A DNA stretch of 64,000 bases from an uncultured Gammaproteobacteria bacterium (GCA_964433095.1 CAYSPW010000002.1:9498-73497), one strand, 5' to 3'; counted from the stretch's first letter, positions 4,918-25,868 are shown. Made by a program: numbers and translations. Notes: generated by a model from the letters alone, not told the origin.

Positions 4918-5559
4918 ATGCCGAGCGTAAAAAAACTACTCATAATTTTCATACCGGCAATTATCATCGCCCTGGTGACTCTTAGTATAAGGGTGTTGCA
5001 ATATATTCCGACTGAAACAAAAGCGGTGGAACAAACCGATTCGGTTTATCAATCACTGATCCCAATTTTTGAAAACGACCCTATATTGGGTTCAAAAAAA
5101 GCCGGCCATACCGTAATAATCTTCGCCGATTTTGCCTGCGAAGCATGCGCGGCCCAAGATAAAATACTGGAAGATCTGATGAAAAAACATCGTGGACAAA
5201 TCAAGGTAATATGGAAAGGACTACCGGTGGCGCGTTTTCCTTTCAACTCACTGGAAGCGCATCGTTACGCCTATTGCGCCAATGAGCAAAACAAATTTGA
5301 ACAATTCGCCAAACTGACCTACACCAACTCAGACAATCTGTCAAGCGCCGCTATCGGCAGAATAGTCAATGAAATCGGCCTTGATCAAGAAAAAATGAAG
5401 CGCTGTTTGGAATCAAACCGGCCGGACGAACACATTGAATTAAACAAGCAGTTGGCCTCCTCTTTAAACATACAGGCCGTTCCGGCTATTTTTTACAATA
5501 ACAAACAACATAAAAGCCCACGGATTATTGAACAGTGGGAAGCTTTGTTAAATCTTTAA
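4918..5559 (+). CDS. DsbA/thioredoxin-like thiol-disulfide oxidoreductase, membrane anchored
   Basis: N-terminal TM helix; CxxC motif (FACEACAAQD) in thioredoxin-like context. Confidence 0.7.
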   Translation: MPSVKKLLIIFIPAIIIALVTLSIRVLQYIPTETKAVEQTDSVYQSLIPIFENDPILGSKKAGHTVIIFADFACEACAAQDKILEDLMKKHRGQIKVIWKGLPVARFPFNSLEAHRYAYCANEQNKFEQFAKLTYTNSDNLSSAAIGRIVNEIGLDQEKMKRCLESNRPDEHIELNKQLASSLNIQAVPAIFYNNKQHKSPRIIEQWEALLNL

Positions 5560-5561
5560 TT

Positions 5562-8306
5562 ATGGCCAAGTTTTTACAAATTTCTACCCTGGCGGTATTG
5601 ATTTCCACAGCAATATTTGATTTCATCCCGGCACGAGCCGCCACCGATTTTACTTACAAAACCGAGATCGCCTCCACCCCGCTCGGCGCGAACGTACAGC
5701 TGGTGGAATACGATACCGCCTGCCCTACCGGAAACGATTCCGGCTCCGATCCCAATCAAGGAATAATTATTACCAGAAACGCGGCCAGTCAAGTACGGGA
5801 AATATACTTTTACTTTCCCGGCAACAATGCGTCCGGAGTGGATCGGGAACCGGAAGATGTATGTTATTCAAATAACACCAAACTCTGCGACATTGTGAAC
5901 AACAATCAAAACTTGGCCATAGTGGCTTTTAACAAAAGCGTATCACCGCGCAACACCCGACAATGGCTGCAAGAACCGGAACACATGCGCTGTTTCATTA
6001 ACGAAGCCAAGAATAAATTAAGAGAACTGGGCGTGTCTTCCAATCGTTTGAATCTGGCCGGACACAGCGGGGGGGGACTGCAGGTCCTGCGCGCAACCAA
6101 AAATTCAGGCTTGAGCTTCAGCCGCGGCATCTTTTTTGACGCTTGCTACGGAACACAATGTTCGGACGCGGCCGCCACCGGCAGAACCGGCGACCTTTTT
6201 ATCTATTATCGGGCCGATTCCGATACCGAACAGGATTCGGTAAATACCAAAGACGGCTTTGCCGACAAAGTCAAGCTGGTCCAAACAACGGCCGCGCACG
6301 GATCCATTCCGCAATCATGCTTTTTGGATCATCTTGATAACAGTCTATGCGACGGCACCGGCACTGAGATCGGCACTCCGTTTGCGGGCGAAGCGCCACC
6401 GACCACCGAAGTTTCACCCGCCCCGGCCGGTTCCACACCGAGCGACGCGGCCGGCACAACTGACAGCTACTATTCCCAATCAGACATACAGGAATTGATT
6501 AGCGCACCACAGCCGATAATTAACATTCCCGGTCTGCAATTTTCCGATGCCGACCTGAGCCGTCTTTTCACTACCGACTACGATGAATTCGGCCGTGAAA
6601 ACACCTATTACTACTTCCCTTTCCTGGGTGAATATCTGGCCGCCGCCTACCGCTATGCCGTCGGTGCCGCCGCCATTCTGGCCATCGTGATAATTATCAT
6701 ATCCGGACTGCAATGGGCAGCTTCGGCCGGCAATCAAGAAACCATCGGCTCGGCCAAAAAGAGAATTTTTGGAGCTTTAATCGGCTTGTTTTTGGCTGTC
6801 GGTTCCTACACCATATTGTATACCATCAATCCCGAACTGACGGAATTTGCCAGTCTGAAGGTTTTAACCATAAAAGGCGAAGCGATTAATCTGGAAGGTC
6901 CTTCCGGAGACGCGGAAGAAGAAGCGGCGCGCCGCCTGCGGCGTGAAGACACTCCTCTCGGCACCACTGTTAGCGGTTCGCGACTTTTTCAACCTCCGAA
7001 CCAAGACAGCTTTTGCTTTCCGGTAGCCAAAGACGGATATGTAAAAAATACCAATAACTGGGGTCAATCCAGAGTTAAAAAAACCGGGGAAAGGGTGCGC
7101 TGCCACGCCGGAGTGGATCTGTTAACGGACGGAACCAATAACAGAGGTACGGTTTTATCAATGACCGACGGCGAAGTGATGCTGATCAGCCGCCGTTTTA
7201 CCGAATGTAAAGACGGACGTACCGAAAAAACCGGTCCCGGAACTTATGAGTGGGTGGGAGCGATATATGTCTATGACAGAAGAAACAATTTCACATATAT
7301 CTATGGCGAAATTAACAATGATACCATCAAGGTAAAAAAAGGAGATATGGTAAAAAAAGGACAAACACTCGGAATAGCATCCAAATGCACCATGCTGCAC
7401 CTGGAAGTATACGCGGGCAAAGGCAGAAAAACCGGCACTTCGATGTACGTAAGCGCCTTTGGCAAGAAAAAATCCGGCTGGTATTTGTTTGACGAACTCA
7501 AGGAACCACTTAACCTGCCCGACCAATTAAATCAAGGAAGAAACATCTGCGCTCAAGATCCGTATTTGCAAATATTGAACAAAACCGGCTCTACTCTTCT
7601 TGATCCGCGACAGTTTTTAAACAACATCAAAGACAATTTTTGCGAACCGGATAAATACTACGCTCCGCCGGCCGATACCGACGTGGAGCTCGCGATCCAG
7701 CAATTCTCTGCCTGCCACGGAATCGACTGGCGCGTTTTCAGGGAAACGGCCATGGCTGAAAGCTCGCTCCGTCCGCATGCCAAACTGGGACGATATTACG
7801 GTCTTTTTCAAGAAAGCGAGACTTATTGCAAAGAAGGATTGCGTTACGGTGATTACTCCATTGTTGGATTAAGCGTCGATAACTGCGAGAACGGATCAGC
7901 GGACGATCTAAGTGGACGCTTTGATATTCGCACCAATGTGGCCGCAGCCGCCGGATATATAAATTTTTTACTGCAGAGAATAGACAGAAAGTGCCCCGGC
8001 ATCAGCGCTTACGACGGCTTGACTTTGATGTATATCGGCCATAATAACGGCATTGGAGTAATGACCAGAATAATTACAAATATGAATGACGACAATGTAG
8101 CCTGCAACATGTCCAATATTTATCGTTACACTCGCGACTATTACATTGAACGCGGCGGCTCTGCTCATGGAGTTACTTTGCAGGAAGCTATGCGCAAATA
8201 TAATCATGGAAAAACATATATCACCGATGTACTTTTCGGCGCCAATAAAAGCGCTCCGCTTGATGTGATATTTGTGGGTAAAAATCCGCAATTGTGTCCG
8301 GATTAA
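5562..8306 (+). CDS. multidomain secreted/membrane cell-wall hydrolase: esterase-like N domain (GHSGGG), two TM helices, M23 (LytM) peptidase, SLT lytic transglycosylase
   Basis: signal peptide after internal Met (MAKFLQISTLAVLISTA); G-H-S-G-G nucleophile-elbow motif; hydrophobic helices (AILAIVIIIISGL, LIGLFLAVGSYTILY); M23 motifs (RCHAGVDL ... CTMLHLEVY); SLT-like catalytic region (AMAESSLRPHAK...YYGLFQ). Confidence 0.7.
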   Translation: MAKFLQISTLAVLISTAIFDFIPARAATDFTYKTEIASTPLGANVQLVEYDTACPTGNDSGSDPNQGIIITRNAASQVREIYFYFPGNNASGVDREPEDVCYSNNTKLCDIVNNNQNLAIVAFNKSVSPRNTRQWLQEPEHMRCFINEAKNKLRELGVSSNRLNLAGHSGGGLQVLRATKNSGLSFSRGIFFDACYGTQCSDAAATGRTGDLFIYYRADSDTEQDSVNTKDGFADKVKLVQTTAAHGSIPQSCFLDHLDNSLCDGTGTEIGTPFAGEAPPTTEVSPAPAGSTPSDAAGTTDSYYSQSDIQELISAPQPIINIPGLQFSDADLSRLFTTDYDEFGRENTYYYFPFLGEYLAAAYRYAVGAAAILAIVIIIISGLQWAASAGNQETIGSAKKRIFGALIGLFLAVGSYTILYTINPELTEFASLKVLTIKGEAINLEGPSGDAEEEAARRLRREDTPLGTTVSGSRLFQPPNQDSFCFPVAKDGYVKNTNNWGQSRVKKTGERVRCHAGVDLLTDGTNNRGTVLSMTDGEVMLISRRFTECKDGRTEKTGPGTYEWVGAIYVYDRRNNFTYIYGEINNDTIKVKKGDMVKKGQTLGIASKCTMLHLEVYAGKGRKTGTSMYVSAFGKKKSGWYLFDELKEPLNLPDQLNQGRNICAQDPYLQILNKTGSTLLDPRQFLNNIKDNFCEPDKYYAPPADTDVELAIQQFSACHGIDWRVFRETAMAESSLRPHAKLGRYYGLFQESETYCKEGLRYGDYSIVGLSVDNCENGSADDLSGRFDIRTNVAAAAGYINFLLQRIDRKCPGISAYDGLTLMYIGHNNGIGVMTRIITNMNDDNVACNMSNIYRYTRDYYIERGGSAHGVTLQEAMRKYNHGKTYITDVLFGANKSAPLDVIFVGKNPQLCPD

Positions 8307-12952: not shown

Positions 12953-12965
12953 GCGTGGTGCACCC
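12953..12965 (+). repeat. 13-bp direct repeat GCGTGGTGCACCC (putative attL core), identical to tRNA-Arg 3' end copy at 25791..25803
   Basis: exact 13/13 match (15/16 with one mismatch) seen at both edges of the GC-rich block. Confidence 0.6.
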
Positions 12966-13470
12966 AAGTTCGGTTTTTCAGAACTCAGGCAGTTGTATCT
13001 CGAGGCCAAACGTGCCGTGACCGAGCTCCAGAAGACCTCGGTGTATGAGCAGCTTGTCACTCCAGAGATGGCGGCACAACTTCATTGATGGCGGTCACTC
13101 CTTTCCCTCCCTGAAACCTCTCCATTCGCTAGAATATTATTAGTAATCGTTAATCTTATCACATATGTCAGTCCGTCTTCAGGTTCAGTCGATGTAGCTT
13201 CCACCGTTTGACACCCGCCTTGATCTCTTTGACTGGCCAACCTGTCAGGCTCTCGATCTCTCCAATCTTGAAACCTACTACTGTATACATATACCAAAGA
13301 TTGTGCCTGGTGAAATCAAGAGACACCGAAGTGGAGGTTTCTTCGAATAGTTTCATATGTTTACAGAATGCCAGACTGAGGAGAATTTGTCAATAATAGG
13401 CAAAGTTTACAACCCTTTACCCCCAAATACGACATTGATGTCGGAGTTGCCTGTGGTGGCAAAGCTGACT

Positions 13471-15186
13471 CTAGCTCGCGATGTGGGCTTCATGGTTGAG
13501 CTTCTCGAAGAACTGTCTGGGGGTATCATAGGAATCTAGAAAGCGGGGTCCCTTATTGTATGCTATGTTCCAGCACCAATATGCCGCACATGCCTGAAAC
13601 CAAGTCGGATTCTCATCCTCCAAATCAAACACTTCAAATACAGAACGGATTCTCTGGTCTGCATCAGGGTGAGTTCTCGATTCTATGTCTTCATCAAGTA
13701 GTAGAAGAGCAGAAACTGACGTGATTCCGCCTGTAATGACAGTAGAACGCTTCGATGATACAAGACTGGCTTCCTGCAAGACCTCGGCAGCATATTCATC
13801 AGCAGCAGTTTCGTCCTGTTTACTATCCTTCATCGCAGAAGGTTCAGTTGACGTATGACCAAGGGCGACATGACCAATCTCATGTGCAAGGGCAAAGATG
13901 GTGGCATACAACAGGATTCCGTTTACCTTCTCGATGTACTCATCTTGATCTGGGTCATACAACTCTGGATTTGGTAGGTTCTTGTCCCACTCTGAAAACA
14001 CTTTCTTGAGACTCATTGCATAGTGGAAGAGTTTCTCCGCCCTTTGCAGGTACTCTGGTCTTGGGGTCATGCCTTGAGCAGTTTTATTCATGCCTTCATC
14101 AGCAACCACAATGAGACAGTAGCACATACACCAAAGGTAGGACAGAAAGGTCTCGGAAATGGATATCTTCGTACCACGGACGTGAGGGAGCATGTTCTCC
14201 GCAAGGAGTGGGCTGTTTGAGATATGATAGTCAATTCCATTGTCGAGACCGTGGTTGGTAATGACCTCCAACCATTTCTCCAAGGCTCCATCATGGCAGT
14301 TTTCAAGCTCATGAATGATGTTGTGCTGTAGTACCCTCACGGGCTGTTCGCCTTTATGGACTTCTGCAAGATAGCGGTTGACTTTCATTTGATTCTCTAC
14401 CTCTTCACTGGGCTTCATTCCACCGTTGGTAAGCAGACCGCCTTTCTTCCAAGAAGAAATGTCATATTCTTCGCCTGCTAGGTAGTTCTCTTGCTCTTTG
14501 TCTAGTGTTAGATCTGCCGGTCCAACATAAGCTAACATATTAGTTGGTGGACCATGTAACCTCTTGAACTGAAATCCCTCTCTCACCTGAGACAGGATAT
14601 TGATCCGTTGCTCTGGTCTCGTTTCGTTGCAGTAACGAAGAACACTGTCCCACGTAAATATCTTAAGATCTTCATTTTCTAGTGTGACAAGTCGATCACG
14701 CAGTGCTCTATCATATTCGATGGCTTTGTCACGGCCAATCACTAACACGTATCTGAACTTGACTCCATTACTTCCCAGTGGCTTTCTGATTGGTTCGATG
14801 CGCCGAAGTACCTCGCTGGTATTTCGTTTGATAAACTCACGATAGGTGTTGATTTGCGACAGGGCCTCTGTTAGGTCGGCTGATTGAACCAATATGCCAC
14901 TACTACGCTTGCTTCGAAACAAGAGCTTCGAAGGTGTCTTGATTTCAACAATCACGAAATGCCACTTTGTTGAGCTCTTTGTCAAATATGCAAAGTCAGG
15001 TTTATCCGCGGTATCCAAACTGAACTGAGAGATGAGACAACGAAAGTGCAGATGGTGATTTAGAAGGAATGCTAGCGGCAGAGATTCTGGTTCCTCTTCG
15101 AATAGTCGCTCTCTCTTAGACTTGTATCGGCCAACATGCTTTCTAACTTTTGTCTTGGTGAAGTAGTCATCGAATCGATACTCCAT
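13471..15186 (-). CDS. fusion protein: N-terminal PD-(D/E)xK nuclease (Shedu/DUF4263-like motif PD...IVEIK) plus C-terminal HExxH zinc metallopeptidase (ImmA/IrrE-like HEIGHVALGH)
   Basis: motifs ADKPDFAYL...WHFVIVEIKTP and LAHEIGHVALGHTS read directly from translation. Confidence 0.55.
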   Translation of the reverse strand: MEYRFDDYFTKTKVRKHVGRYKSKRERLFEEEPESLPLAFLLNHHLHFRCLISQFSLDTADKPDFAYLTKSSTKWHFVIVEIKTPSKLLFRSKRSSGILVQSADLTEALSQINTYREFIKRNTSEVLRRIEPIRKPLGSNGVKFRYVLVIGRDKAIEYDRALRDRLVTLENEDLKIFTWDSVLRYCNETRPEQRINILSQVREGFQFKRLHGPPTNMLAYVGPADLTLDKEQENYLAGEEYDISSWKKGGLLTNGGMKPSEEVENQMKVNRYLAEVHKGEQPVRVLQHNIIHELENCHDGALEKWLEVITNHGLDNGIDYHISNSPLLAENMLPHVRGTKISISETFLSYLWCMCYCLIVVADEGMNKTAQGMTPRPEYLQRAEKLFHYAMSLKKVFSEWDKNLPNPELYDPDQDEYIEKVNGILLYATIFALAHEIGHVALGHTSTEPSAMKDSKQDETAADEYAAEVLQEASLVSSKRSTVITGGITSVSALLLLDEDIESRTHPDADQRIRSVFEVFDLEDENPTWFQACAAYWCWNIAYNKGPRFLDSYDTPRQFFEKLNHEAHIAS

Positions 15187-15207: not shown

Positions 15208-18200
15208 TCACAACCAATCACAGTACACCTTGAAATACTCCCCATCCGATTCCCAGGTGCAGGGATCATCCCCACCTTCATCGAACTCTCCGTCACAGTC
15301 ATTGTCCCAGCCACCCAACTCATAGTCGTGCATGGCAGGATTGTTCTGCTCTGACCCATCCGCCCACATCCAGAAGGTCGAGTTTGCCGGGCATGTGTTG
15401 GTTGTGTAGATGAAGAACACACCTCCGGCTTCCTCGCAGATCACTCGGGGATCGTTGTCGATGTTGTCGAAGGGGTTGTCGTCACAATCTCCTCCCAGTG
15501 TCTCGGTGCAGTGGGGATTCTCCGAAGGCTCACATGGCGCGACCTCACAGTAGCAGTCCCAATCGTTATCAATCTGGTCAGCTGTGAAATCTGAGTGACC
15601 GGCATTCTCTCCCGATTCATTGCTATCTATTGCACCATGTAGATCCTGTTGACACACCCCATTCCAACCCGCTTCGTGCTCAGGACAGAAAAGACAGGAG
15701 CTTTGGTTTGAAGTTCGTGCTCCACTGGCGTAGTATTCAACTCCATCGAAAGAAACTGCGAAAGAGGAAGTCTCTTTGCATTTGTCTGGGCCCAAGTCCG
15801 TCCAGTAGAAATCTCCTGTACGAGAGTCGCTAGCCGAGCCGATGTCCAGATAGTGGTCGGCGATGGTCACATCATCGTTACACCGGCGGAAAGCAAACCG
15901 AAAGGGGACGTAGGAGCGACAGTTGATGCAACCCTGGTAAGGAGCATCACCAGACCATATCTCTGGTAGGTCGTACTCCAGCCAGCCATCGCTATCTGTA
16001 TCAGATATCGCTATCTCAACGTGATTGAAGGTGTCATCAGCCCATCTACTCCAGCCAATCACACAGGGGGTGACGTTTTCAAACGGTGTTCCATCTTGGA
16101 GATCAAACTCTGTTGGCAGGATGAGGATTCTACCATTGTCATTCGGATCAAACCGAATCGCGCAGGCATTGTCCTCACACGGTCCGAGAGGTTCACAGAC
16201 CCCTGCAACACATTGCTCATTGAAGCCACAGGCAGGACAGGTCACCTCATCACCACATCCATTGTCCCAGGTACCACAGTCATGGCCGAGATCAGCGCAT
16301 GACTGAAGAGTACAACACTCGCCTTCGTAGCAGATATCTACCCCAGTACAATCACCACACTCCAGCGACATTCCGCAACCGTTGTCCGGTGTCCCGCATT
16401 CGCTCACCAGACACTCCCTGGGTACACAAACACAGAATCCATTCTGACATTCCTCTTGAGCGAGCTCGTCGCAGATTCCACATTCGAGGGTTTCTCCACA
16501 GCCGTCGGGCCACGGTCCACAGGAATTCGAACCTATCGCTTCGCAAGTCGTCGGTGTGCAACCTGCACAAGTATTACCTGAACAGCCATAGGTGCAGGTG
16601 ATCGCGTTTCCCCAGTCCAGACAGTCGTCTGGATCAAAATCGCCACATGTTTCCTCAATACCATCCACACAGCGGGTCTCGTCAATCATATCGCATTCGT
16701 CGGAGCAGGTGGTCACACATGTTCCTGTCAGGTCACAGGTCTCACCAATGCCGCATCCTCCGCACTCGAGAGTGTCACCACAGCCATTCGGCCAGTCTCC
16801 GCACTCCACCTGGAGACTGATGCAGGTGTCCGGAGCGCAGCATGAGTTTTCGTAGCAGACGCCATCCGGGCAAGAAGTTGGACTGCTCCATTCTAAACAT
16901 TCATCCTGGTCGTGGTTGCCACAGGTTTGGATCAGCTCTCCCGTACACTGAGTCCTTCCTTGGGGAAGGCAGTCATCGGTGCAAGTGTCTTGGCATTCGC
17001 CTCCACGACAAATTCGGTTCAGGCCACACTCAAGTCCATCAGTCTCAACAGGACAGTTCTGTTCTTCTGTTACACCTTGGCTGTAATCGCAAGATCCGTC
17101 TACACAGGACACTGTTGGTACATACCTAGATTGTGTGCCGTTCTCATCGCAGACATTCTCGATTGAAAGACACTCAGACCACTCACCGGGGATTGGCTCG
17201 GGACAGTCTGAAGCCTCGGTACACTCCGGCATATCACCACAATGAGAGCTGTCTTCGAAGTCTGCTATCGTGAGACTTGATTGTTGTTGTCCAAGCCACC
17301 TTCGGTCAACGCTGGATGGAATAGAAACGAAGTCTGTGACGATGTAACCAGCCCGAGCAAGTTCTGCCTGGCTCATGTTGAGCTGTCTGATCTCGTGGTT
17401 GAACAAAGTCACATAGTAGTTGCCTTGGTGTTTAAGGAGAAAGCCGGGGTGATAGGCAGCCTCTTCGACCAGCGATCTCTTCAGATCCCAGACTTCACCT
17501 CCTCCAAGCTCGGCATCTCTTCCCCAGCTAAGTGCCAGTTGTTCAAAGGTGCTTTCGTTGACCTTACCGACTTCGCGATCGTAGCTGAGTCCATCATAGT
17601 AAGCGTAGAGCGTTCCATTTCGCACAAACGCCTGAAAACTGACTGTTTCTGTAGCCAGATTGTATTCCTCACAGAGAGGATAACAACGAAGCTCCTCCTC
17701 TGAGACAAAGATATTGAGACCCAAATCGAACGCGTCTGGATCCTCAAGATTGTCTGGATTGGCAATGTAACGAAGGCAACCGTCTTCAAGAAGGTAGAGA
17801 CAGTTGACTTCACTATCTCCACCTTCGTGAACACAAAGGCCACTCTGGGTTTGAATGAGACTGCCATCAGGGTGCCAGAAGATACCTCTTTCTTCACAAC
17901 GACCGTTAACACAAGTCGACTCAGCACAGTCTACCAACAACGACCCTCTCTCCTCACATGAATTGTACCAGTATACATCACCCTCATAACATCGGAAGTC
18001 TGCTCTAGGAGTACATGGAGTAGGACATTCTGGATCCTCAGTATCTACCAAACCATCGCAGTCGTCATCCAGACCATTATCACAGAACATCTCCTCATCA
18101 AGACAATCGCCTCCAGTCTCCTCTCCGACACGGAACTGAGTGACGTAGTCTGGGATGTCATACTGTCGATTATCCTCAGTATGTACGAACATATCTATTT

Positions 18201-19659
18201 CATAAGGAGCTTCCGGTAGCCCATCCAATTCTATGATATGAAAAGCAAAGTCCCACATGTCGTAGCCTTCTGTGATTTGTGAAGGAAAAATCCACTCGGT
18301 ATCCCCAGATATCTCAACATCACCTATTGCAAGATTGTACACGATATAGTGAATGCGGTGGTTTCTCTGAGGTGCATCCACTCTAGCCGATATGAACACA
18401 GTATCTCCAACGCCAAAACCGTTACCTTCACCATACTCACTACCATTACAACGATAGAACCAGTCGGCATTGGGTGTCGGCCTTTCGGTGCAAATTGTCG
18501 GGTTTGGATAGTAAATTGATGGGCTATTTACTACATAACCCGGATCGTATGGGCCTCTCTGAACACGATATGAAAAAACCACTTCTGGATCATCTGAATA
18601 TTCGGTGAATCCACCACCTGTGTCGACAAATACCCTGAAGATCCATCTCGTCCACTTTCTCTCGGGAGTCCCGATCCTCTTGAGATCATCATGAACCCGT
18701 ACATTCTCAAAGGTGACATGAAGGATTGATTCACCTGATGGTTCGCGCCATTCCGTGTTCCAGCTCCAATCCAGGCAGTATTCTTCGTGACTATTTTCTG
18801 CAGCACAATCCTCTGTTCCCTCACGATAAGCCTCTACTCGATAACGATGTGCGACATCAATGTCGAAAACAGCAAGGCTATGTACCGTGTCGCCTGAGAA
18901 TATTTCATACGAGGGGTTTTCCTGTGCAACTAAAACATTTTCGTTGTCTAAATGAGATATCCCCCCAGCACTTCTACCCATTTCTAGACCGCACGTGTCA
19001 TCATTTAGAAGGTAAGTGCAAGAGATTGGGTTGAGGTTAGAAGGGACAAATCGAACATTGTTTCTTTCCGTAAAACCGTCATGCCAACCTCGGTGCAGTT
19101 CGGTCATCTTCGTATTTCCTATTTTTACATCCTTCAGCATCTGGTTCGTTTCTAATCCACTGTCAAGGTGTGCTAACTGTTGGTGAAGATGCGATCCATC
19201 TGAGTAACCACTGTTTCCAAGTATACCGACCATCTCGCCCTTTGATACATAGCCCTTTTCCAAAACTCCCTGTGGAATCGACCCCTCCTTCAGATGTGCT
19301 AGTTTGACCGAATAGCCCGCGCCAAAGTCAATCTCAATATAGCAGCCAAAAGACAGTACATCTGTCCCGAATGTGTTGGGGCAAAGCGCATTACGTGATT
19401 TCAACACCTTACCTGATACCGGAGAGACAATCTGTACTTCAGTTTGATTACCCCCCTGACGAATTTGATCATCCCAATCAAGAGAATAGAATCCGTTTCC
19501 TATATGAGTGTCAGATTCGCCACAGCCAACGGTAAGGTACCATTGTAAGCCTGATGGCATCGCCGAATCGTAGCTTGCGCCTAGATATTGAGCACTTGCA
19601 GCTTTGGCAAGAAGGAACAAAGTCACTACACAGCATGTTAATTCCGCTACCTGTCTCAT
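15208..19659 (-). CDS. giant (1483 aa) secreted cysteine-rich protein with N-terminal M23 peptidase domain and tandem Cys-rich modules
   Basis: signal peptide (LLAKAASAQ); M23 motifs (GNGFYSLDWD...GSHLHQQ); more than 100 Cys; repeated C-G-x-W-x-x-G-C-G-x-x-L-x-C-G-x-C units; acidic CxDxxDxD calcium-binding-like segments. Confidence 0.7.
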   Translation of the reverse strand: MRQVAELTCCVVTLFLLAKAASAQYLGASYDSAMPSGLQWYLTVGCGESDTHIGNGFYSLDWDDQIRQGGNQTEVQIVSPVSGKVLKSRNALCPNTFGTDVLSFGCYIEIDFGAGYSVKLAHLKEGSIPQGVLEKGYVSKGEMVGILGNSGYSDGSHLHQQLAHLDSGLETNQMLKDVKIGNTKMTELHRGWHDGFTERNNVRFVPSNLNPISCTYLLNDDTCGLEMGRSAGGISHLDNENVLVAQENPSYEIFSGDTVHSLAVFDIDVAHRYRVEAYREGTEDCAAENSHEEYCLDWSWNTEWREPSGESILHVTFENVRVHDDLKRIGTPERKWTRWIFRVFVDTGGGFTEYSDDPEVVFSYRVQRGPYDPGYVVNSPSIYYPNPTICTERPTPNADWFYRCNGSEYGEGNGFGVGDTVFISARVDAPQRNHRIHYIVYNLAIGDVEISGDTEWIFPSQITEGYDMWDFAFHIIELDGLPEAPYEIDMFVHTEDNRQYDIPDYVTQFRVGEETGGDCLDEEMFCDNGLDDDCDGLVDTEDPECPTPCTPRADFRCYEGDVYWYNSCEERGSLLVDCAESTCVNGRCEERGIFWHPDGSLIQTQSGLCVHEGGDSEVNCLYLLEDGCLRYIANPDNLEDPDAFDLGLNIFVSEEELRCYPLCEEYNLATETVSFQAFVRNGTLYAYYDGLSYDREVGKVNESTFEQLALSWGRDAELGGGEVWDLKRSLVEEAAYHPGFLLKHQGNYYVTLFNHEIRQLNMSQAELARAGYIVTDFVSIPSSVDRRWLGQQQSSLTIADFEDSSHCGDMPECTEASDCPEPIPGEWSECLSIENVCDENGTQSRYVPTVSCVDGSCDYSQGVTEEQNCPVETDGLECGLNRICRGGECQDTCTDDCLPQGRTQCTGELIQTCGNHDQDECLEWSSPTSCPDGVCYENSCCAPDTCISLQVECGDWPNGCGDTLECGGCGIGETCDLTGTCVTTCSDECDMIDETRCVDGIEETCGDFDPDDCLDWGNAITCTYGCSGNTCAGCTPTTCEAIGSNSCGPWPDGCGETLECGICDELAQEECQNGFCVCVPRECLVSECGTPDNGCGMSLECGDCTGVDICYEGECCTLQSCADLGHDCGTWDNGCGDEVTCPACGFNEQCVAGVCEPLGPCEDNACAIRFDPNDNGRILILPTEFDLQDGTPFENVTPCVIGWSRWADDTFNHVEIAISDTDSDGWLEYDLPEIWSGDAPYQGCINCRSYVPFRFAFRRCNDDVTIADHYLDIGSASDSRTGDFYWTDLGPDKCKETSSFAVSFDGVEYYASGARTSNQSSCLFCPEHEAGWNGVCQQDLHGAIDSNESGENAGHSDFTADQIDNDWDCYCEVAPCEPSENPHCTETLGGDCDDNPFDNIDNDPRVICEEAGGVFFIYTTNTCPANSTFWMWADGSEQNNPAMHDYELGGWDNDCDGEFDEGGDDPCTWESDGEYFKVYCDWL
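16225..16830 (-). repeat. four tandem ~40-codon Cys-rich repeat units inside the giant gene (CG[DPT]W[PD][ND]GCG[DE]xLxC)
   Basis: repeated nucleotide strings such as ccattcggccagtctccgcactc / cagccgtcgggccacggtccacagg / catccattgtcccaggtacc on + strand. Confidence 0.5.
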
Positions 19660-19712: not shown

Positions 19713-20447
19713 TCAGTATTCCACACTAGACACGATCTGCTTGAAAACTTGATAGAGTTCGTTGCTCTCTATCTGTCCCAGCAGTTCTTGATTGCATCCA
19801 TGGATATCCTGGTATGTGTATTTGCCGGTGATATCGTCTGATTTGAGTAGTGTGCCAACATTAGAAAGATAGACTACGAATAATACGTTCGGGTATTCCT
19901 TTGTTTGGTTCTGAACCAGTCCCTTCAAGTACACATTCGAAAGCGAAGGTTTCCTTAAGTAATCCTCACTTTCTCCGTAGTCAAAGAAAACCTGATATAT
20001 GAAGGCGTTATTGGATACTACTTCAGGATCACAGTGGAGATCTTCGTTCTCGGATTCGAGTTGTTCCCCCAATGAACCATTGAGTTCAAATTCTCGTGCT
20101 CCAAAAGATGGCGAATATTCACTCGAGCCAATTGATACATCCCACGTTTCAGCCCGAATGTAGATAGATTTTCCTGTTTCCTGGTGACGGAGAGTGATTC
20201 TGATCACCCTACCTGAATCACCATCATTGGACGATTGAACAAGATTTGTACTTTCTGTGTCTTCGATTTCCCAACTATTAGGATAATGAAAGCGGATATC
20301 AAGTTCTTCATTATAATAAACATTTAGGTTGTCTGGATTCCTTTCATCTTTCAATGCTGGAGACTCGCACGCAACACAAAATAGCATCACTGTAAGGGTG
20401 AATAGGGCAACGAGTATTACGCTGTAAATTTGCGGTTGTTTCATGTT
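19713..20447 (-). CDS. hypothetical secreted/lipoprotein-like protein (start at MKQPQIYSV, signal peptide ending ...LFCVAC)
   Basis: N-terminal hydrophobic signal with Cys after it; no family recognised. Confidence 0.45.
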   Translation of the reverse strand, partial: NMKQPQIYSVILVALFTLTVMLFCVACESPALKDERNPDNLNVYYNEELDIRFHYPNSWEIEDTESTNLVQSSNDGDSGRVIRITLRHQETGKSIYIRAETWDVSIGSSEYSPSFGAREFELNGSLGEQLESENEDLHCDPEVVSNNAFIYQVFFDYGESEDYLRKPSLSNVYLKGLVQNQTKEYPNVLFVVYLSNVGTLLKSDDITGKYTYQDIHGCNQELLGQIESNELYQVFKQIVSSVEY

Positions 20448-20502
20448 GTATCCTTTGATGTCATTTAGACATGACGCGATCGCTGTGTCAGTTCGCTTGT
20501 CT

Positions 20503-23034
20503 TCATAACGTGCTTGCATGTCGCCAGCCAGCCTCCTCAAGACGATCTCCGAAGCTCTTCTTTGTCATCTCTGCCAAGGCCTCGATCGTTCTCCTGATTC
20601 GACGCTGCGCCGGCAGATGCCGGCCACGCTTGAGGTTCTTCCTCGAGAAGAGTTGACGCTGCTTCTTGACGAACTTCCGTACACGGTGGCCAACATAGTC
20701 GTCTTTCTCGATCTTACTGAGCAGGACGGGAACCTTTCCCGCATGTGGCTCTCGGAGGATTCTAAGAGCCAAGGTGAAGCCCTTCACATAGACAGGTGAA
20801 AGGTCTCTGTGCTTCCCTAGTATCCTGTAGATGGACCGTGTCCAAGGTTTGATGTACTCAGGATAGACGTTCCGCAGCAACTGATCAAGGTTCGATCCGT
20901 CTCTGAGTGGACCCTGTGTAAGAGCTTGAAGACTCTTTGTCAGCAGCCCGGGTAGCACTTCATCAGAGCACTTGGTGAGGTACCGGTCGAGCTCCTGTGC
21001 TTCCTCTATCTTCAGGTGTTTTCTGAAGAGCTCCTCCAGCTCAGGTCTACTCGGATACTGTTTCATGTGGTAGAGAACGAGGCGCTTCCGGTAGGCTGGC
21101 AGCTCGAGCTCCTCGAGGAGCTCATGCACTTTCCTCTCAACATCGAACCAAGCATCTTCGATCAGTTTGTCCGTTGTTCCATCGTCCCATTCTTGCAGGT
21201 GCTCGAAGTAGTGACGATGCAGCTCATTGCGGTAGTGGCGGATGCAGGTTGACATCGGCAGGAGAAGCTGTTTGGGCCGAGCCACTTCCTTTTCCTGGTG
21301 CTCGCCTTTGTCTGCTTCCCTCAGCAACTCTATCGTCTCTCGAACGAGGGCAAGAGATTGAGTATCCGTTGGATTCTCGATGAGAGTCCGGATGACTGTC
21401 TCCATCCGGCCATTTCTCAGGGCGGGAGGTAGATAGCCTTCTGTCTTTTCGATATCATCTTCAAGAGGTAGGTCATTCGGGTTGAGGACGGGGCTTTGCT
21501 CCTCAACCTCTTCTTCCTCAATGAGCTCAGGCTCGAATGAGACGAAGAGATCATCTTCAGAGTCTCTGTCCCACACCGGTTTCTCTTGTTGATTAATTTC
21601 CTTTACTTTATCACATTCTCTCAAAATTTCAAGTTCTTGACCTATCCTCTCATGTTCAAGCCACTCATGGTCCATGAGCAGTCTGTTTCTCTCACTACTC
21701 CAAGCCTTTTCAGCCAGTCTCACTTGATACGAGATGACCTTTGAGACAAGCTGCTCGAAACGCTCCTTTTCTTGGTGCTCTAAGAGTAAAGTGAGTGCTT
21801 GCTCAAGGAGATCGGCACTCAGTCGATCATTGTGCTTCAATCTGCGAAGCAGGTCATCACTTGGGAAGACCTCTGTCTGCTCCAAGCCCCAGTCCTCGAG
21901 GTAGGTCGGGATGTCAGAGAATCTGATTGTGCCACCATCGTAGGCAATCCGTATAAGATAGTAGAAGAAGTTGTCGCTCACATTGACGCGCATGCGTTCC
22001 AACCAGTTGTCACGAATTAGTTTTCCGCCCCCTATTTTATCACAACAGGGTGGACAATGTGGCAACAACACCTTCGCCAAGAGTGGATCCGCGATTGATT
22101 CGTACTTGTCAGATAAACTGGACTCCTCATCCCTAATGAGCATGCGTACCAACCTCATGCCAAAGCTCGGTGGATTCTTAGATAGGATCTGTCCAAGAAA
22201 CTCCTGAAAGTCCTTTCCTTGCTGAAGAAGCAGGTCAGTCAGCTCAAACTGGTCCGATTGACCGATGTATGCTTGGTAGGTTTCTTCGATCACGGGGTAG
22301 GACTTCTCATCATGCAGTAGCTCACACAAGCAAATGGTCTTGACGATCGGGTCCTGGATTTGCGAGATGGCCGGAACCAAGGACTCTCCGTTTTTGAGCG
22401 CGTGTGCCAGATAGGTCTTCCTGAGACGTTCAATGAACTCAGGGCGTTCTTTCAAGATACGCAGGAGGAGATCAAGCTCACCGCTGTACACTTCATTCCC
22501 TAGACGATCCCTGAGACTCTTGGGGAGCTGCTTGAAGTCGAAGGTGTAAGGATGTCTGACAAATAAATCCACCAGTTCGTCATCGCTCGGCTCGTGGGTC
22601 TTGAGGAGTTTTTGCAGGAGCTTGAACTCTTGTCGGTCTCCCTCCCAATCACTTGAATTGATGTTGTGAGTAAAGTACTGCCATGCGGCTGTCTTCGCTT
22701 TCGGGGTGTCGATGTAGAGATCTGAGAAGGACTCACTCACTCGTGCACATTCAGTAGCGCGACACAAGGAACGTATTGCACCAGAAAGTGATGAAGAGTT
22801 TATCGAGGAAGCGGCGTAACTCTTTAGGTCGAAGAGTATATAGACCTGCTCGTGCAGATAGGGATGGCAATAGGTCATTACTAGGTCTGAGGGATGGGTA
22901 CTGGTGCCGTGTCGACGCTGATAAACACATTCCCAGTTCTCGTCCGTAGGACCCACTTGGATCCAGAGGAAGGCATCAAAGATATCCGACGCAACTTTGT
23001 TTGCCATTTCAGCAATGTTTGCAGTCTCAGGCAT
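20503..23034 (-). CDS. large hypothetical protein (843 aa), N-terminal PD-(D/E)xK-like motif (HPSD...EQVYILFDLK), remainder alpha-helical
   Basis: motif read from translation; no other family recognised by eye. Confidence 0.5.
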   Translation of the reverse strand: MPETANIAEMANKVASDIFDAFLWIQVGPTDENWECVYQRRHGTSTHPSDLVMTYCHPYLHEQVYILFDLKSYAASSINSSSLSGAIRSLCRATECARVSESFSDLYIDTPKAKTAAWQYFTHNINSSDWEGDRQEFKLLQKLLKTHEPSDDELVDLFVRHPYTFDFKQLPKSLRDRLGNEVYSGELDLLLRILKERPEFIERLRKTYLAHALKNGESLVPAISQIQDPIVKTICLCELLHDEKSYPVIEETYQAYIGQSDQFELTDLLLQQGKDFQEFLGQILSKNPPSFGMRLVRMLIRDEESSLSDKYESIADPLLAKVLLPHCPPCCDKIGGGKLIRDNWLERMRVNVSDNFFYYLIRIAYDGGTIRFSDIPTYLEDWGLEQTEVFPSDDLLRRLKHNDRLSADLLEQALTLLLEHQEKERFEQLVSKVISYQVRLAEKAWSSERNRLLMDHEWLEHERIGQELEILRECDKVKEINQQEKPVWDRDSEDDLFVSFEPELIEEEEVEEQSPVLNPNDLPLEDDIEKTEGYLPPALRNGRMETVIRTLIENPTDTQSLALVRETIELLREADKGEHQEKEVARPKQLLLPMSTCIRHYRNELHRHYFEHLQEWDDGTTDKLIEDAWFDVERKVHELLEELELPAYRKRLVLYHMKQYPSRPELEELFRKHLKIEEAQELDRYLTKCSDEVLPGLLTKSLQALTQGPLRDGSNLDQLLRNVYPEYIKPWTRSIYRILGKHRDLSPVYVKGFTLALRILREPHAGKVPVLLSKIEKDDYVGHRVRKFVKKQRQLFSRKNLKRGRHLPAQRRIRRTIEALAEMTKKSFGDRLEEAGWRHASTL

Positions 23035-23083: not shown

Positions 23084-23902
23084 CTATTTTCGTGGCATCT
23101 TCAGTTTCTTGAGCTTTGCCCTTTTCTTCTTCTTACCCCATATGTTCTTAGTTTTTCTTTGTTGAGTCGAAAATTCATATACTATCTCCTCATAGGTCAG
23201 GCCTGGATGTATTACAGGAATTGCCGATCGCGCAAACTTCTGTTTCAAAGAGAGCTCACCAGATTTGGGTAAGATGACGCACGCGAGATCATACATTCTA
23301 AACTTCAAATCACCACGAACGCGCCATTCTCGCTCCCAAGTGAAATCGTATCTCTCATGCATGGCGTTGATAAAAGGAAGAAGTCTCCATATTTTACCCT
23401 TATGGAAGCCACCTTTTTTTGCAACGTTGAACAGACTATCGACAGCTTCACGCAACCACGTATTATCATTGTAGCTGTTGATGTAAATGGCCGGCTGAGC
23501 GCCCTTTGAAATAATGAACTCGCGACTGAACACGAACCCATACTCCTCGAACTGGTTATTTCGACCTGGAATACGTTGAGTGAGTAGATGAATTTGTGTG
23601 AGTGGAATCTCCGAAAAGCAACAAACACTGAACCTCTCTTGATACCTATCTGGTATGTCCTTCGCAAACAAGCAGTGAGGTAGATAGGCTGAGATTTGGC
23701 GTTCCTCAAGAATTGCGCGAAAGTTCTCTTTTGCTGACCCACCCGACTCACCAAACGTATTTGTATCGTTCCGTGTTAGGTGAACCACGAATTTCGAGAT
23801 GTCTTCGCGTCCGCTGACAGCAAATCCTCTTGAACCCATGACAAGACCAGAAGTAGATTTTGTGATAGCGCAGCAGTTAAGAGTACTTGAACATACGGCC
23901 AA
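23084..23902 (-). CDS. hypothetical protein, DarT/AbiGi-like abortive-infection family candidate (H ... Y-G-F-V-F ... E-R-E-W-R order)
   Basis: FVVHLTR, VCCFSEIPL, YGFVFSREF, WEREWRVRG segments; resemblance judged from memory only. Confidence 0.4.
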   Translation of the reverse strand: MAVCSSTLNCCAITKSTSGLVMGSRGFAVSGREDISKFVVHLTRNDTNTFGESGGSAKENFRAILEERQISAYLPHCLFAKDIPDRYQERFSVCCFSEIPLTQIHLLTQRIPGRNNQFEEYGFVFSREFIISKGAQPAIYINSYNDNTWLREAVDSLFNVAKKGGFHKGKIWRLLPFINAMHERYDFTWEREWRVRGDLKFRMYDLACVILPKSGELSLKQKFARSAIPVIHPGLTYEEIVYEFSTQQRKTKNIWGKKKKRAKLKKLKMPRK

Positions 23903-24210: not shown

Positions 24211-25857
24211 ATGAAAACAAATAATTATCTCATCTACACTCGCAAGAGTGATGATGATGCCAACAACCAAAAAAACTCGATTGACTACCAAACAGCCGCG
24301 TGTCTACAGTTCGCAGAGCAGAACACCATTCCGGTTGCCTCGCTTGATAGAGAAGGCTTCATCGAGAACGGAGTCATCAAGGAGAGGCACACTGCTTTCA
24401 AGACCTCAGACATCAAGATAATGCCGGATGGTTCTGTTCGGTATGGCATCGAGCGGCCTAAGTTCCAGAAGCTCGTGCAGGTCTTGGCCAAGAGACAGTT
24501 CGCAGGAGTTGTCTGTCTCTGCTGGGATCGCATCAGTCGGAACGACCAGGATGCTATTCTCGTGAAGAAGTTGATCAAGGATGGCATCGACTTCCGGTTC
24601 GTCTGGGTCGACTATGCCAAGTCGAGTGCCGGAGCACTGCATATGGACATCGATGGGATGTTCGCCGTCCATCACTCGAGAGTGACCAGTGAGCGAGTCC
24701 GAGCGACCTATTCAAAACTTCGGAGTGAGGGTAAATGCACCTATCGAACCCCAATCGGTTACCTGGATCAGGGTCCGGACAACAAACCACTTGATCCGGA
24801 AAGAGCTCCCATCAAGCGCATCTTTAAGAAGTATGCGACAGGAGGTTGGAGCTACAACGAGCTCGCCAAATGGGCGATCCAACAAGGTCTCACTCACAAA
24901 CCCAGACGGCCGGATAGAACTCGAGAGGAGATCAAGGCAGGAGAGGAGAACAGAAAGCCAAAGGTACGCCATCCCATCAGTCATAAGACAATCGAAAATG
25001 TGCTCAAGAATCCCTTCTACGCTGGTAAACTAAGGCACAACGGGGATGTGTTTGATGGTATTCACGTGCCTCTTATCTCCCTCAGACTCTTCAACAAGGT
25101 ACAAGCGATGATCTCCTCAAGGCAGATTTCAGTCCACTACGTGGAAAAGGACTTCTTTGTCTACAGAGGTTTCCTTCGTTGTGTCTGCGGTCGAACGTAT
25201 TGTCCGTACAGAAAAAAGGGACACACATACTATCGCACGAAGTGCAAGGAGGGCTGCTCGAACGAAGACCCGAATCTAAGCGAGAAGTCAGTTCATGAGA
25301 AGGTAGAAGAACTACTCGGCGAGATTCACTTATCCGACGAGCAGATCCGCAAACTCGAAGAACAAGCCATGAATGGAGTGGACAGTCTTGCAGCACAGCG
25401 CGACCATACACTAGATGAGCTCCACAACCAACAGAGACGTATCTACAAGGACATCGACTACTTGAAGAAGTTCAAGATCTCTCTGCTACGAGAGCAGGCC
25501 TACTCTCCGGAGGACTTCCAGGCCGAGATGAGAAGACTGGAGACGGAGTTGGAAAACGTTCATGCTGAGATGGATACGTGCAAAGAAAAAGAGAGCGAAA
25601 TGCTCTCCTACATCTTGACGTTTACCGAACTCGTAAATTCCGCTAAACAATGGTACAAACACGCTCCAGACAAGAAAAAACACGAAGTTCTTTCCCAGGT
25701 GTTTACCGAACTGGTCTTCAAGGACAAAGAATTGGCTGGGTTTACAGTAAAAGAGGGCTATGAGACCCTCTTCAAAGTGCTTGATAGGAAGCGTGGTGCA
25801 CCCGGCAGGAATCGAACCTGCATTACGAAATCCGCAATCTCGCGTCCTATCCATTGA
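24211..25857 (+). CDS. large serine recombinase (resolvase N-domain + recombinase domain + zinc ribbon + coiled coil); last ~20 codons read through tRNA-Arg
   Basis: catalytic motif LIYTRKSDDD...Q, DRISRN motif, Cys cluster CVCGRTYCPY...CKEGC, C-terminal coiled-coil. Confidence 0.85.
   Translation: MKTNNYLIYTRKSDDDANNQKNSIDYQTAACLQFAEQNTIPVASLDREGFIENGVIKERHTAFKTSDIKIMPDGSVRYGIERPKFQKLVQVLAKRQFAGVVCLCWDRISRNDQDAILVKKLIKDGIDFRFVWVDYAKSSAGALHMDIDGMFAVHHSRVTSERVRATYSKLRSEGKCTYRTPIGYLDQGPDNKPLDPERAPIKRIFKKYATGGWSYNELAKWAIQQGLTHKPRRPDRTREEIKAGEENRKPKVRHPISHKTIENVLKNPFYAGKLRHNGDVFDGIHVPLISLRLFNKVQAMISSRQISVHYVEKDFFVYRGFLRCVCGRTYCPYRKKGHTYYRTKCKEGCSNEDPNLSEKSVHEKVEELLGEIHLSDEQIRKLEEQAMNGVDSLAAQRDHTLDELHNQQRRIYKDIDYLKKFKISLLREQAYSPEDFQAEMRRLETELENVHAEMDTCKEKESEMLSYILTFTELVNSAKQWYKHAPDKKKHEVLSQVFTELVFKDKELAGFTVKEGYETLFKVLDRKRGAPGRNRTCITKSAISRPIH
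25791..25803 (+). repeat. 13-bp direct repeat GCGTGGTGCACCC (putative attR core) overlapping tRNA-Arg 3' end
   Basis: exact copy of 12953..12965. Confidence 0.6.
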
Positions 25858-25868
25858 ACGACGGGTGC
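25795..25868 (-). tRNA. tRNA-Arg (anticodon GCG as read; CCA encoded)
   Basis: hand-folded cloverleaf: acceptor GCACCCG/CGGGTGC, D-arm GTTC..GGAC, anticodon stem CGAGA/TTTCG loop TTGCGGA, T-arm GCAGG-TTCGATT-CCTGC. Confidence 0.75.

Follow-up and report, generated by a model that had tools for sequence, protein, structure and literature searches.

What is a 1483-residue protein with 105 cysteines doing on a mobile island beside a tRNA gene? We addressed this question for an open reading frame (ORF) at 15208..19659 on the minus strand of a 64,000-nucleotide stretch of DNA from an uncultured bacterium (GCA_964433095.1 CAYSPW010000002.1:9498-73497, filed under Gammaproteobacteria). Hereafter, the ORF and its product are called the target, and the whole stretch is called the window. 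We propose that the target would be a Sec-exported, disulfide-stabilised, modular peptidoglycan hydrolase, carried as island cargo and most likely cutting the wall of another cell, and we give this reading a probability of roughly 0.55. Established here are the ORF and its repeats, its membership in the M23 peptidase family, the island, the mosaic pattern of homology, and the repeated pairing of a hydrolase head with a rare domain (domain X).

The RecG encoded next to the island is 69% identical to the RecG of a Candidatus Magasanikiibacteriota metagenome-assembled genome (MAG), and its better matches are nearly all from Patescibacteria MAGs. From RecG and synteny, we assign the host to Candidatus Magasanikbacteria, within the candidate phyla radiation (CPR).

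The M23 head and the export signal

The ORF starts with ATG and is preceded by an AGGAG ribosome-binding site 8 nt 5' of it. Its translation bears out the length and the more than 100 cysteines claimed in an earlier reading of this DNA (the sequence-only reading): cysteine makes up 7.1% of the residues, D+E amount to 272 versus 74 for K+R, and the net charge is -198. That reading had also proposed a signal peptide. The sole strongly hydrophobic stretch of the target is indeed N-terminal (aa ~3-23) and ends in ...AKAASA before QY, an AXA-type end read by rule. The N-terminus thus fits a Sec signal peptide by the n-h-c and AXA rules, and export is predicted. Sequence inspection found no further transmembrane (TM) segment in the target and no LPXTG motif in its C-terminal tail.

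The head was identified by several searches. Pfam Peptidase_M23 (PF01551), the sole Pfam family found on the target, matches aa 74-163; its 35.1 bits exceed the gathering cut-off (28.7). The NCBIfam and PHROGs matches of the head, namely peptidoglycan hydrolases and metallo-endopeptidases, agree with Pfam; some PHROG matches are tape-measure proteins and endolysins. The best PDB sequence matches are the M23 enzymes TagE, ShyA, and lysostaphin, the last among the weak ones. The HxH motif (H157-L-H159) and the histidine of the AHL motif (H122) align with the TagE motifs (phmmer) and with solved M23 enzymes. The N-terminal M23 domain of the sequence-only reading therefore stands, the Pfam score lying above the cut-off and both of the motifs cited for it, GNGFYSLDWD (aa 54-63) and SGYSDGSHLHQQ (aa 150-161), being present in the translation.

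Three of the five catalytic positions were verified in this way. The other two, the first His and Asp, depart from the canonical form. Profile position 13, where the Pfam match begins, is past the HxxxD motif that supplies this pair. As candidate first zinc ligands, we point to H52 together with D61 or D63, which would give a wide spacing like that of M23A enzymes. In beta-lytic protease, an M23A enzyme, the first ligands are likewise widely spaced (H22...D36) (PMC8715609).

The features of the target are as follows, with coordinates in the window.

15208..19659 (-): whole ORF, 1483 aa, 105 Cys (translation, composition, AGGAG site)
19591..19659 (-): signal-peptide-like N-terminus, aa 1-23 (MRQVAELTCCVVTLFLLAKAASA then Q; only hydrophobic segment, AXA by rule)
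19150..19542 (-): M23 head, aa ~40-170, with the Pfam match at aa 74-163 (nt 19171-19440) and H122/H157/H159 conserved (Pfam, NCBIfam, PHROGs, PDB, alignment with the relative P0025)
18115..19062 (-): orphan region, aa 200-515, probably beta-rich, with no homolog detectable by exhaustive HMMER or Pfam
18025..18111 (-): acidic Cys motif, aa 517-545 (CDNGLDDDCDGLVDTEDPEC), like half a MopE/acidic-disulfide repeat (regex, P0025 alignment)
17884..18027 (-): small Cys module C, aa 545-592, with at most 11 copies per matching protein
17260..17883 (-): domain Y, aa 593-800, common to P0028 only, at ~30% identity
16984..17241 (-): Cys module region D, aa 807-892, found in 23 copies in P0010 and 13 in P0085; no TSP_1 match in Pfam
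16834..16983 (-): module A1, aa 893-942 (diagonal scan, local HMMs)
16702..16833 (-): module B1, aa 943-986, core CGDWPNGCG (motif, diagonal scan)
16558..16701 (-): module A2, aa 987-1034 (diagonal scan)
16426..16557 (-): module B2, aa 1035-1078, core CGPWPDGCG (motif, diagonal scan)
16309..16425 (-): module B3, aa 1079-1117, variant core CGTPDNGCG (diagonal scan)
16177..16308 (-): module B4, aa 1118-1161, core CGTWDNGCG (motif, diagonal scan)
15685..16176 (-): domain X, aa ~1162-1325, rare, conserved, beta-rich, with a DxDxDGW loop, common to M23-headed and GH25-headed proteins
15211..15684 (-): acidic C-terminal tail rich in Cys, aa 1326-1483, carrying another DNDCDG motif and without TM segment or LPXTG (sequence inspection)

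Repeat modules, domain X, and their relatives

The target holds two types of repeat, arranged in the order A1-B1-A2-B2-B3-B4 over aa 893-1161 (nt 16177-16983). Module B (~43 aa, 8 Cys) reads C..C..CGxWxxGCGxxLxCGxC..C..GxC and starts near aa 943, 1035, 1079, and 1118. Module A (~49 aa) reads CxDxCx7Cx7CGxxDxDxCLxW..C..G.C and starts at aa 893 and 987. A2 and B1-B4 have 8 Cys each, and A1 has 9. In a BLOSUM62 diagonal scan, the internal repeats scored 52-90, compared with maxima of 52 in 30 shuffles of the whole protein and 64 in 100 shuffles of the region. The sequence-only reading had described four tandem CGxWxxGCG repeats of ~40 aa; four B copies are reproducible in the scan, but they are not strictly tandem, as A modules are interleaved, and only three carry the exact core (aa 953, 1047, and 1128), the fourth having CGTPDNGCG (aa 1088).

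At the DNA level, Tandem Repeats Finder detected no tandem repeat in the target. The only DNA repeats are weak 35-nt matches (63-74% identity), two of whose three copies lie inside stretches coding for CGxWxxGCG. A diversity-generating retroelement was considered and rejected, as there is neither a reverse transcriptase nor a template/variable repeat pair.

No hidden Markov model (HMM) of Myxo_disulph_rpt/DUF4215, EGF, TSP_1, or Cu-binding_MopE (PF11617) in Pfam or NCBIfam matched the target at E<=1, and the acidic double-disulfide repeat NF033662 gave no match either. The EGF/thrombospondin-like domains suggested earlier thus did not emerge from the domain search, and aa 825-860 (EWSEC...GTQSR) look TSP1-like by eye only. 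A regex search found MopE-like half-motifs at aa 526 (CDNGLDDDCDG) and aa 1451 (WDNDCDG). The former aligns with a repeat of P0025 that itself matches NF033662 weakly.

The homology of the target to other proteins is a mosaic. An exhaustive HMMER search with aa 200-1399 against 1.84 billion representative proteins (E<=1e-3) matched 814 proteins, and the best 149 of these were mapped onto the target; the coverage and module counts below refer to these 149. More than 100 matches span only aa 875-1165, that is, modules A and B. Elsewhere, 14 lie on aa 545-592 (C), three on aa 810-881 (D), and five on aa 1165-1320 (domain X), while one, P0028, also spans aa 600-800 (domain Y). No match spans aa 200-545 or aa 1330-1399. 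Local HMMs located module A in 108 of the 149 proteins (652 copies, up to 14 each) and module B in 48 (222 copies, up to 12 each). In the consensus of the top 40 matches, module A is a regular repeat of ~52 aa, and some relatives have B cores identical to those of the target (e.g., CGTWDNGCG in P0086). Modules A, B, and D have no Pfam or NCBIfam model, even in proteins with 8-23 copies.

A full-length homolog was not found. A word-indexed search of 5.8 billion proteins returned the target alone; the same search with aa 1-518 returned nothing, and with a domain X profile it returned P0129 only. The word prefilter evidently misses these relatives, since exhaustive HMMER later found 814. Scans of genome, viral, and metagenome contigs with the target yielded no relative, a three-sequence domain X alignment matched nothing in metagenome contigs, and tblastn of the target against phage and plasmid collections was likewise negative.

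The partner domains in the proteins that carry these modules comprise PKD, beta-helix/NosD, LTD, Big_7, FG-GAP, Laminin_G, and several glycosidases, with M23 in two of 40, and most carriers have an N-terminal hydrophobic segment. Because of these partners and N-termini, we interpret modules A and B as generic extracellular stalk repeats. The named carriers are mostly Myxococcota/Myxococcales MAGs; the others are two MAGs labelled 'Pseudomonadota', one archaeon, one Desulfomonile, and one Patescibacteria MAG. The myxobacterial likeness proposed in the sequence-only reading is consequently borne out by the carriers and not by the Myxo_disulph_rpt models. The cysteine-rich secreted proteins of Myxococcota MAGs (P0009, P0012, P0013, P0016, and P0020) have modules A and B in common with the target at ~40-50% identity, in the forms CxDECx3Gx3Cx7CGxxDxDxCLEWG... 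(A) and CGTWxDGCGGTLxCGxC (B). In contrast to the two A and four B copies of the target, they contain up to 12-14 tandem copies each; their partners are PKD, beta-helix, LTD, and PPC, mostly without M23, and their genomes have high GC. A recent transfer from Myxococcota was rejected, as the DNA of the relatives has 65-70% GC versus 49.5% for the target and the identity is just 36-44%.

Domain X (~160 aa) is known from six sequences at 36-41% identity, with 23 invariant columns that include a D-x-D/N-x-D-G-W-x-E loop, which we take to resemble DxDxDG calcium-binding loops. In three proteins it lies C-terminal of a wall-hydrolase head, and these heads are of two unrelated types, M23 and GH25. 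Such a C-terminal position after the head is where cell-wall-binding domains sit in lysins. Besides the target, P0025 (TAK04024.1, annotated as hypothetical, from the Patescibacteria group MAG GCA_004297215.1) combines an M23 head at aa 96-200 with a MopE motif, followed by domain X and seven FG-GAP repeats. P0056 has a GH25 muramidase at aa 42-223 (full-length, 151 bits), Dicty_CTDC repeats, and a C-terminal domain X. P0028 consists of an N-terminus without assignment, Cys repeats, domain Y, further Cys repeats, and domain X. Two short or partial proteins also contain the domain. All of these relatives lie in DNA of 65-70% GC, so the target is not a recent import from them.

P0025 is similar to the target in several respects. 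Both have a signal-like N-terminus and, in place of HxxxD, the pattern CG..(S/T)H..x(6-8)..D(W/L). The M23 match begins at profile position 12 in P0025, leaving the canonical HxxxD uncovered in both proteins. P0025 also has acidic DNDCDG-type Cys motifs and a B-like module that immediately precedes domain X (the latter 40% identical to that of the target), and its gene adjoins an integrase and a tRNA. Unlike the target, it lacks counterparts of aa 200-545 and of domain Y, ends in the FG-GAP repeats instead of an acidic tail, and belongs to a 65% GC genome (versus 45%) with a tyrosine integrase rather than a serine recombinase. On its 842-kb contig (L081, SCUM01000001.1), the P0025 gene follows a tyrosine integrase, Replic_Relax, a helix-turn-helix regulator, and a DDE transposase. 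A tRNA-Leu, with its 3' end towards the gene, lies 140 nt beyond it, which matches the topology in the window. No att repeat for this element was found within the 15 kb examined.

We also noted the surroundings of these genes. L081, from a MAG labelled Patescibacteria, has ~65% GC over the 25 kb examined, with NusA, YidC, and GroES/EL near the element; such a GC content is unusually high for CPR. P0056 is flanked by a kinase gene and preceded by a gene with a weak M23 match and CBM_4_9 (L085, 226-1710, +), so that two wall hydrolases are adjacent. The flanks of P0028 (L082, 1-9621) encode a KAP NTPase, a radical SAM protein, DNMK, a Ser/Thr kinase, and an AAA_11/12 helicase, which gives a defence-like neighbourhood.

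The island at tRNA-Arg and its cargo

The target belongs to an insertion of ~12.8 kb, with six genes, between tRNA-Arg(GCG) and recG. In the three closest loci (L001-L003), the gene order is LytR, a 167-aa gene, tRNA-Arg(GCG), and RecG, and the insertion breaks this synteny. None of the six genes had a tblastn match in any of 80 related Patescibacteria loci. The 13-mer GCGTGGTGCACCC, which contains the tRNA 3' end, occurs exactly twice in the window, at both junctions (chance expectation, 0.04). Together with a serine recombinase, these observations uphold the earlier claim that the gene is carried on a mobile element. The insertion is an integrative island sited at a tRNA gene; of its cargo genes, the target is the largest. 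The remaining island features are listed below.

12953..12965 (+): left att-like direct repeat, GCGTGGTGCACCC (13-mer search)
13471-15186 (-): 571-aa Shedu SduA-Lit fusion (PADLOC SduA 7e-61, Pfam SduA_C; PADLOC Lit 4.6e-23)
19713..20540 (-): 275-aa lipoprotein-like secreted protein, 53 nt upstream of the target (sub-threshold PsbP_2 match)
20503-23034 (-): 843-aa protein whose first ~110 aa match PADLOC 'Hp1' (5e-23) and phrog_7059 (2e-32), the rest without match
23084-23902 (-): AbiGi-like protein (Pfam borderline, 23.0 versus 22.4 bits)
24211..25857 (+): large serine recombinase (Resolvase and Recombinase domains; phrog_95 'integrase' 5e-57)
25791..25803 (+): right att-like direct repeat, overlapping the 3' end of tRNA-Arg(GCG) (25794-25868, -) (13-mer search)

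The gene for the SduA-Lit fusion follows the target after 21 nt on the same strand, and its Lit part, a Peptidase_U49-like metallopeptidase, has a HEIGH motif. The SduA-Lit, Hp1-like, and AbiGi-like genes together give the island the appearance of a small defence island. Pfam, PHROGs, and PADLOC revealed no conjugation, replication, or phage structural genes on it; a prophage lysin was rejected, as the island has no phage structural genes. Viral contig scans with the recombinase and with the 843-aa protein returned nothing.

The sequence-only reading had called the gene compositionally alien to its host, which proved true in part. The GC at third codon positions of the target (0.474) is within the core-gene range of 0.44-0.57. 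Its overall GC is 0.495 versus 0.450 outside the island, and the excess is at codon positions 1 and 2, reflecting an amino-acid content rich in G, D, E, and C. Yet the synonymous codon usage of the six island genes lies at a distance of 1.21-1.46 from the core, against 0.53-1.16 for core genes, despite the length of the target. The codon usage of the island and the amino-acid make-up are thus foreign, while the third-position GC is not.

Several further observations concern the element and its site. The recombinase ORF crosses the right att repeat into tRNA-Arg; circular excision would yield 571 aa instead of 548, with an altered C-terminal tail (12953-13090). An open frame across the junction is not significant alone, because 25% of random 45-codon windows are open. 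In L001 (9433-9560), the closest relative, a unit of ~60 nt including the tRNA 3' end (GATTCCTGCCGAGAGCAC...) is repeated downstream of tRNA-Arg, which suggests earlier integration and excision events at this tRNA, a possible hotspot. At the left island end (12966-13470), the minus strand has a possible ORF of 62-73 aa, MKLFEETSTSVSLDFTRHNLWYMYTVVGFKIGEIESLTGWPVKEIKAGVKRWKLHRLNLKTD, which could be a DNA-binding or excision factor. A small lipoprotein-like gene lies directly upstream of the giant M23 gene in both the window and L081 (9413-10000, +). The two have a marginal similarity over 29 aa only (RFxxPxxW..., E=0.007), and the upstream gene could be an immunity or chaperone partner.

In the chromosomal part of the window, a DsbA-like thioredoxin gene (4918-5559, +) precedes and overlaps a gene for a 923-aa protein (5535-8306, +) in which a T4SS_pilin domain is combined with an M23 domain scoring below threshold; this M23 domain has retained the canonical HxGxD (CHAGVD). 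Both genes are conserved in L001. A TraG/VirB4-like ATPase is encoded at 60017-61894 (-). The T4SS_pilin/M23 gene and this ATPase probably belong to the Patescibacteria type IV secretion system (T4SS) described in PMC12102498.

Proposed function and known systems

We propose the following course of action for the target. The protein would be exported by Sec and folded oxidatively. The DsbA-like gene of the window, conserved in relatives, makes extracellular disulfide formation plausible. The head, as a zinc M23 endopeptidase, would then cut peptidoglycan cross-links. It is followed by ~340 aa without detectable relatives and by what is probably a rigid stalk of small disulfide modules (C, D, and A1-B1-A2-B2-B3-B4), mostly with 8 Cys, interrupted by the globular domain Y. 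Domain X, which is conserved, beta-rich, and probably calcium-binding, may serve as a surface-recognition or targeting module, as its position suggests, before the acidic Cys-rich tail at the C-terminal end. The CPR bacteria studied so far are episymbionts, which makes the wall of a host bacterium the obvious candidate for the substrate and competitors the alternative; the cell attacked would thus be the presumed episymbiont's host or a competitor.

At the level of architecture, the M23 match, the HxH motif, the AHL histidine, and a domain X found behind both M23 and GH25 heads support the secreted lytic effector or adhesin of the sequence-only reading. The hydrolase proposed here is further favoured by the recurrence of this arrangement near mobile-element genes in a second CPR genome (P0025), and large CPR proteins with ~7% Cys and a signal peptide are a precedent (PMC4736985). 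Several results weigh against such a hydrolase. The canonical HxxxD zinc-ligand motif is absent from the head, with F57 in the place of the His, four residues before D61, and the M23 score, at 35 bits, is modest. Pfam detected no SH3b, LysM, or PG_binding wall-binding domain. A single-sequence AlphaFold model of aa 24-545 had a mean confidence (pLDDT) of 35.6 and was unusable, so nothing was drawn from it. The remaining genes of the island resemble anti-phage defence genes, a setting only loosely in keeping with a competition weapon, and no immunity gene was recognised among the neighbours.

The missing HxxxD would also suit an adhesin or surface fibre, in which the M23 head is a non-catalytic, peptidoglycan-binding tip of the degenerate LytM type and the stalk and domain X project for host attachment. 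About 1300 of the 1483 residues are stalk or binding-type modules without catalytic function, P0025 ends in integrin-like FG-GAP repeats, and an attachment role has been proposed for giant Cys-rich CPR proteins (PMC4736985). The target has no C-terminal anchor (TM or LPXTG) to hold such a fibre on the producer, however, and the full-length GH25 match in front of domain X in P0056 speaks for a head with enzymatic function. HxH and the AHL histidine are intact here, residues that are usually lost from degenerate LytM domains. We consider this explanation unlikely. An enzyme that remodels the wall for the element or its producer, either opening it locally for DNA transfer or pilus assembly or acting as an autolysin, appears improbable. 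It would agree with the gene being island cargo, with the tape-measure and endolysin matches of the head, and with the TraG/VirB4-like ATPase and the T4SS-pilin/M23-like chromosomal protein (5535-8306), the latter indicating that M23 domains are used in the secretion or transfer machinery of this lineage. Yet genes for conjugation, replication, or phage structure are missing from the island, no related gene turned up in the phage and plasmid collections (tblastn) or in the viral contigs scanned, and a stalked, highly acidic protein of 1483 aa is far larger than typical transfer-associated hydrolases. The island context might further suggest an anti-phage defence component, such as an abortive-infection effector lysing the infected cell, given the tightly spaced same-strand array with the AbiGi-like gene, the gene with an Hp1-like N-terminus, and the SduA-Lit gene. 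PADLOC gave no match on the target, though; the signal peptide and more than 100 Cys of the target imply an extracellular location, away from the site of action of known abortive-infection effectors; and the domain X relatives occur in varied contexts (mobile-element for P0025, defence-like for P0028, M23/CBM-like and kinase for P0056). A role in defence is thus very improbable.

Beyond the wall hydrolase proposed for the target, domain X and the A/B stalk might together be a horizontally mobile 'lytic effector chassis' with exchangeable heads, carried on tRNA-targeting elements in CPR, an idea that we advance tentatively and consider rather unlikely. If true, episymbionts would have swappable, strain-specific tools to breach or grip host walls, domain X would be a new calcium-dependent surface-recognition domain, and aa 200-545 would be a lineage-specific specificity module. 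How CPR/Patescibacteria attach to and exploit their hosts is poorly understood, and the few candidate effectors are mostly from Saccharibacteria. The locus provides a concrete candidate from a different CPR lineage, namely a predicted secreted wall hydrolase on a mobile island, and the same theme in a second CPR genome suggests horizontal exchange of such tools. The analysis also delineates several widespread disulfide-rich repeat families and the rare domain X, all of them without a curated model, which could help to annotate large secreted proteins by the hundreds, from Myxococcota and further phyla.

Among known systems, the M23 bacteriolysins lysostaphin and zoocin A combine an M23B head with a targeting domain and are often encoded on mobile elements. 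Similar to the target, they have a secreted M23 head, non-catalytic C-terminal modules, and a location on mobile DNA (PMC8715609 in part). The target is 3-6 times larger, lacks SH3b and the canonical HxxxD, has a disulfide-rich stalk, and is accompanied by no FemABX-type immunity gene that we could see; its activity is predicted only. Of the traits of a class III bacteriocin, namely a secreted lytic enzyme with a targeting domain and a cognate immunity function, the target shows a predicted secreted M23 head, and domain X may be the targeting part. The M23A enzymes LasA and beta-lytic protease are extracellular as well, and their wide first His/Asp spacing resembles that of the candidate pair H52...D61/63. 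Neither was retrieved by sequence search, the best PDB matches being of the M23B type (TagE and ShyA), and no propeptide was seen in the target. The large Cys-rich proteins of CPR Peribacteria (1655 +/- 751 aa, 7.2% Cys, with a signal peptide), for which a role in attachment was proposed, were reported as a chromosomal 14-gene cluster, mostly without functional predictions and with only a weak likeness to Myxococcus Cys-rich repeats (PMC4736985). The target fits this class by description only, as a CPR protein of 1483 aa with 7.1% Cys and an N-terminal hydrophobic segment. Unlike those proteins, it has an identified M23 head and is encoded by island cargo. The target thus belongs to a familiar type of enzyme, the secreted M23 hydrolases borne by mobile elements, but is unusual in its build and its host. 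It is distinguished by ~340 aa lacking detectable relatives, a non-canonical first metal motif common to one other CPR protein, uncurated stalk repeats, and the rare domain X.

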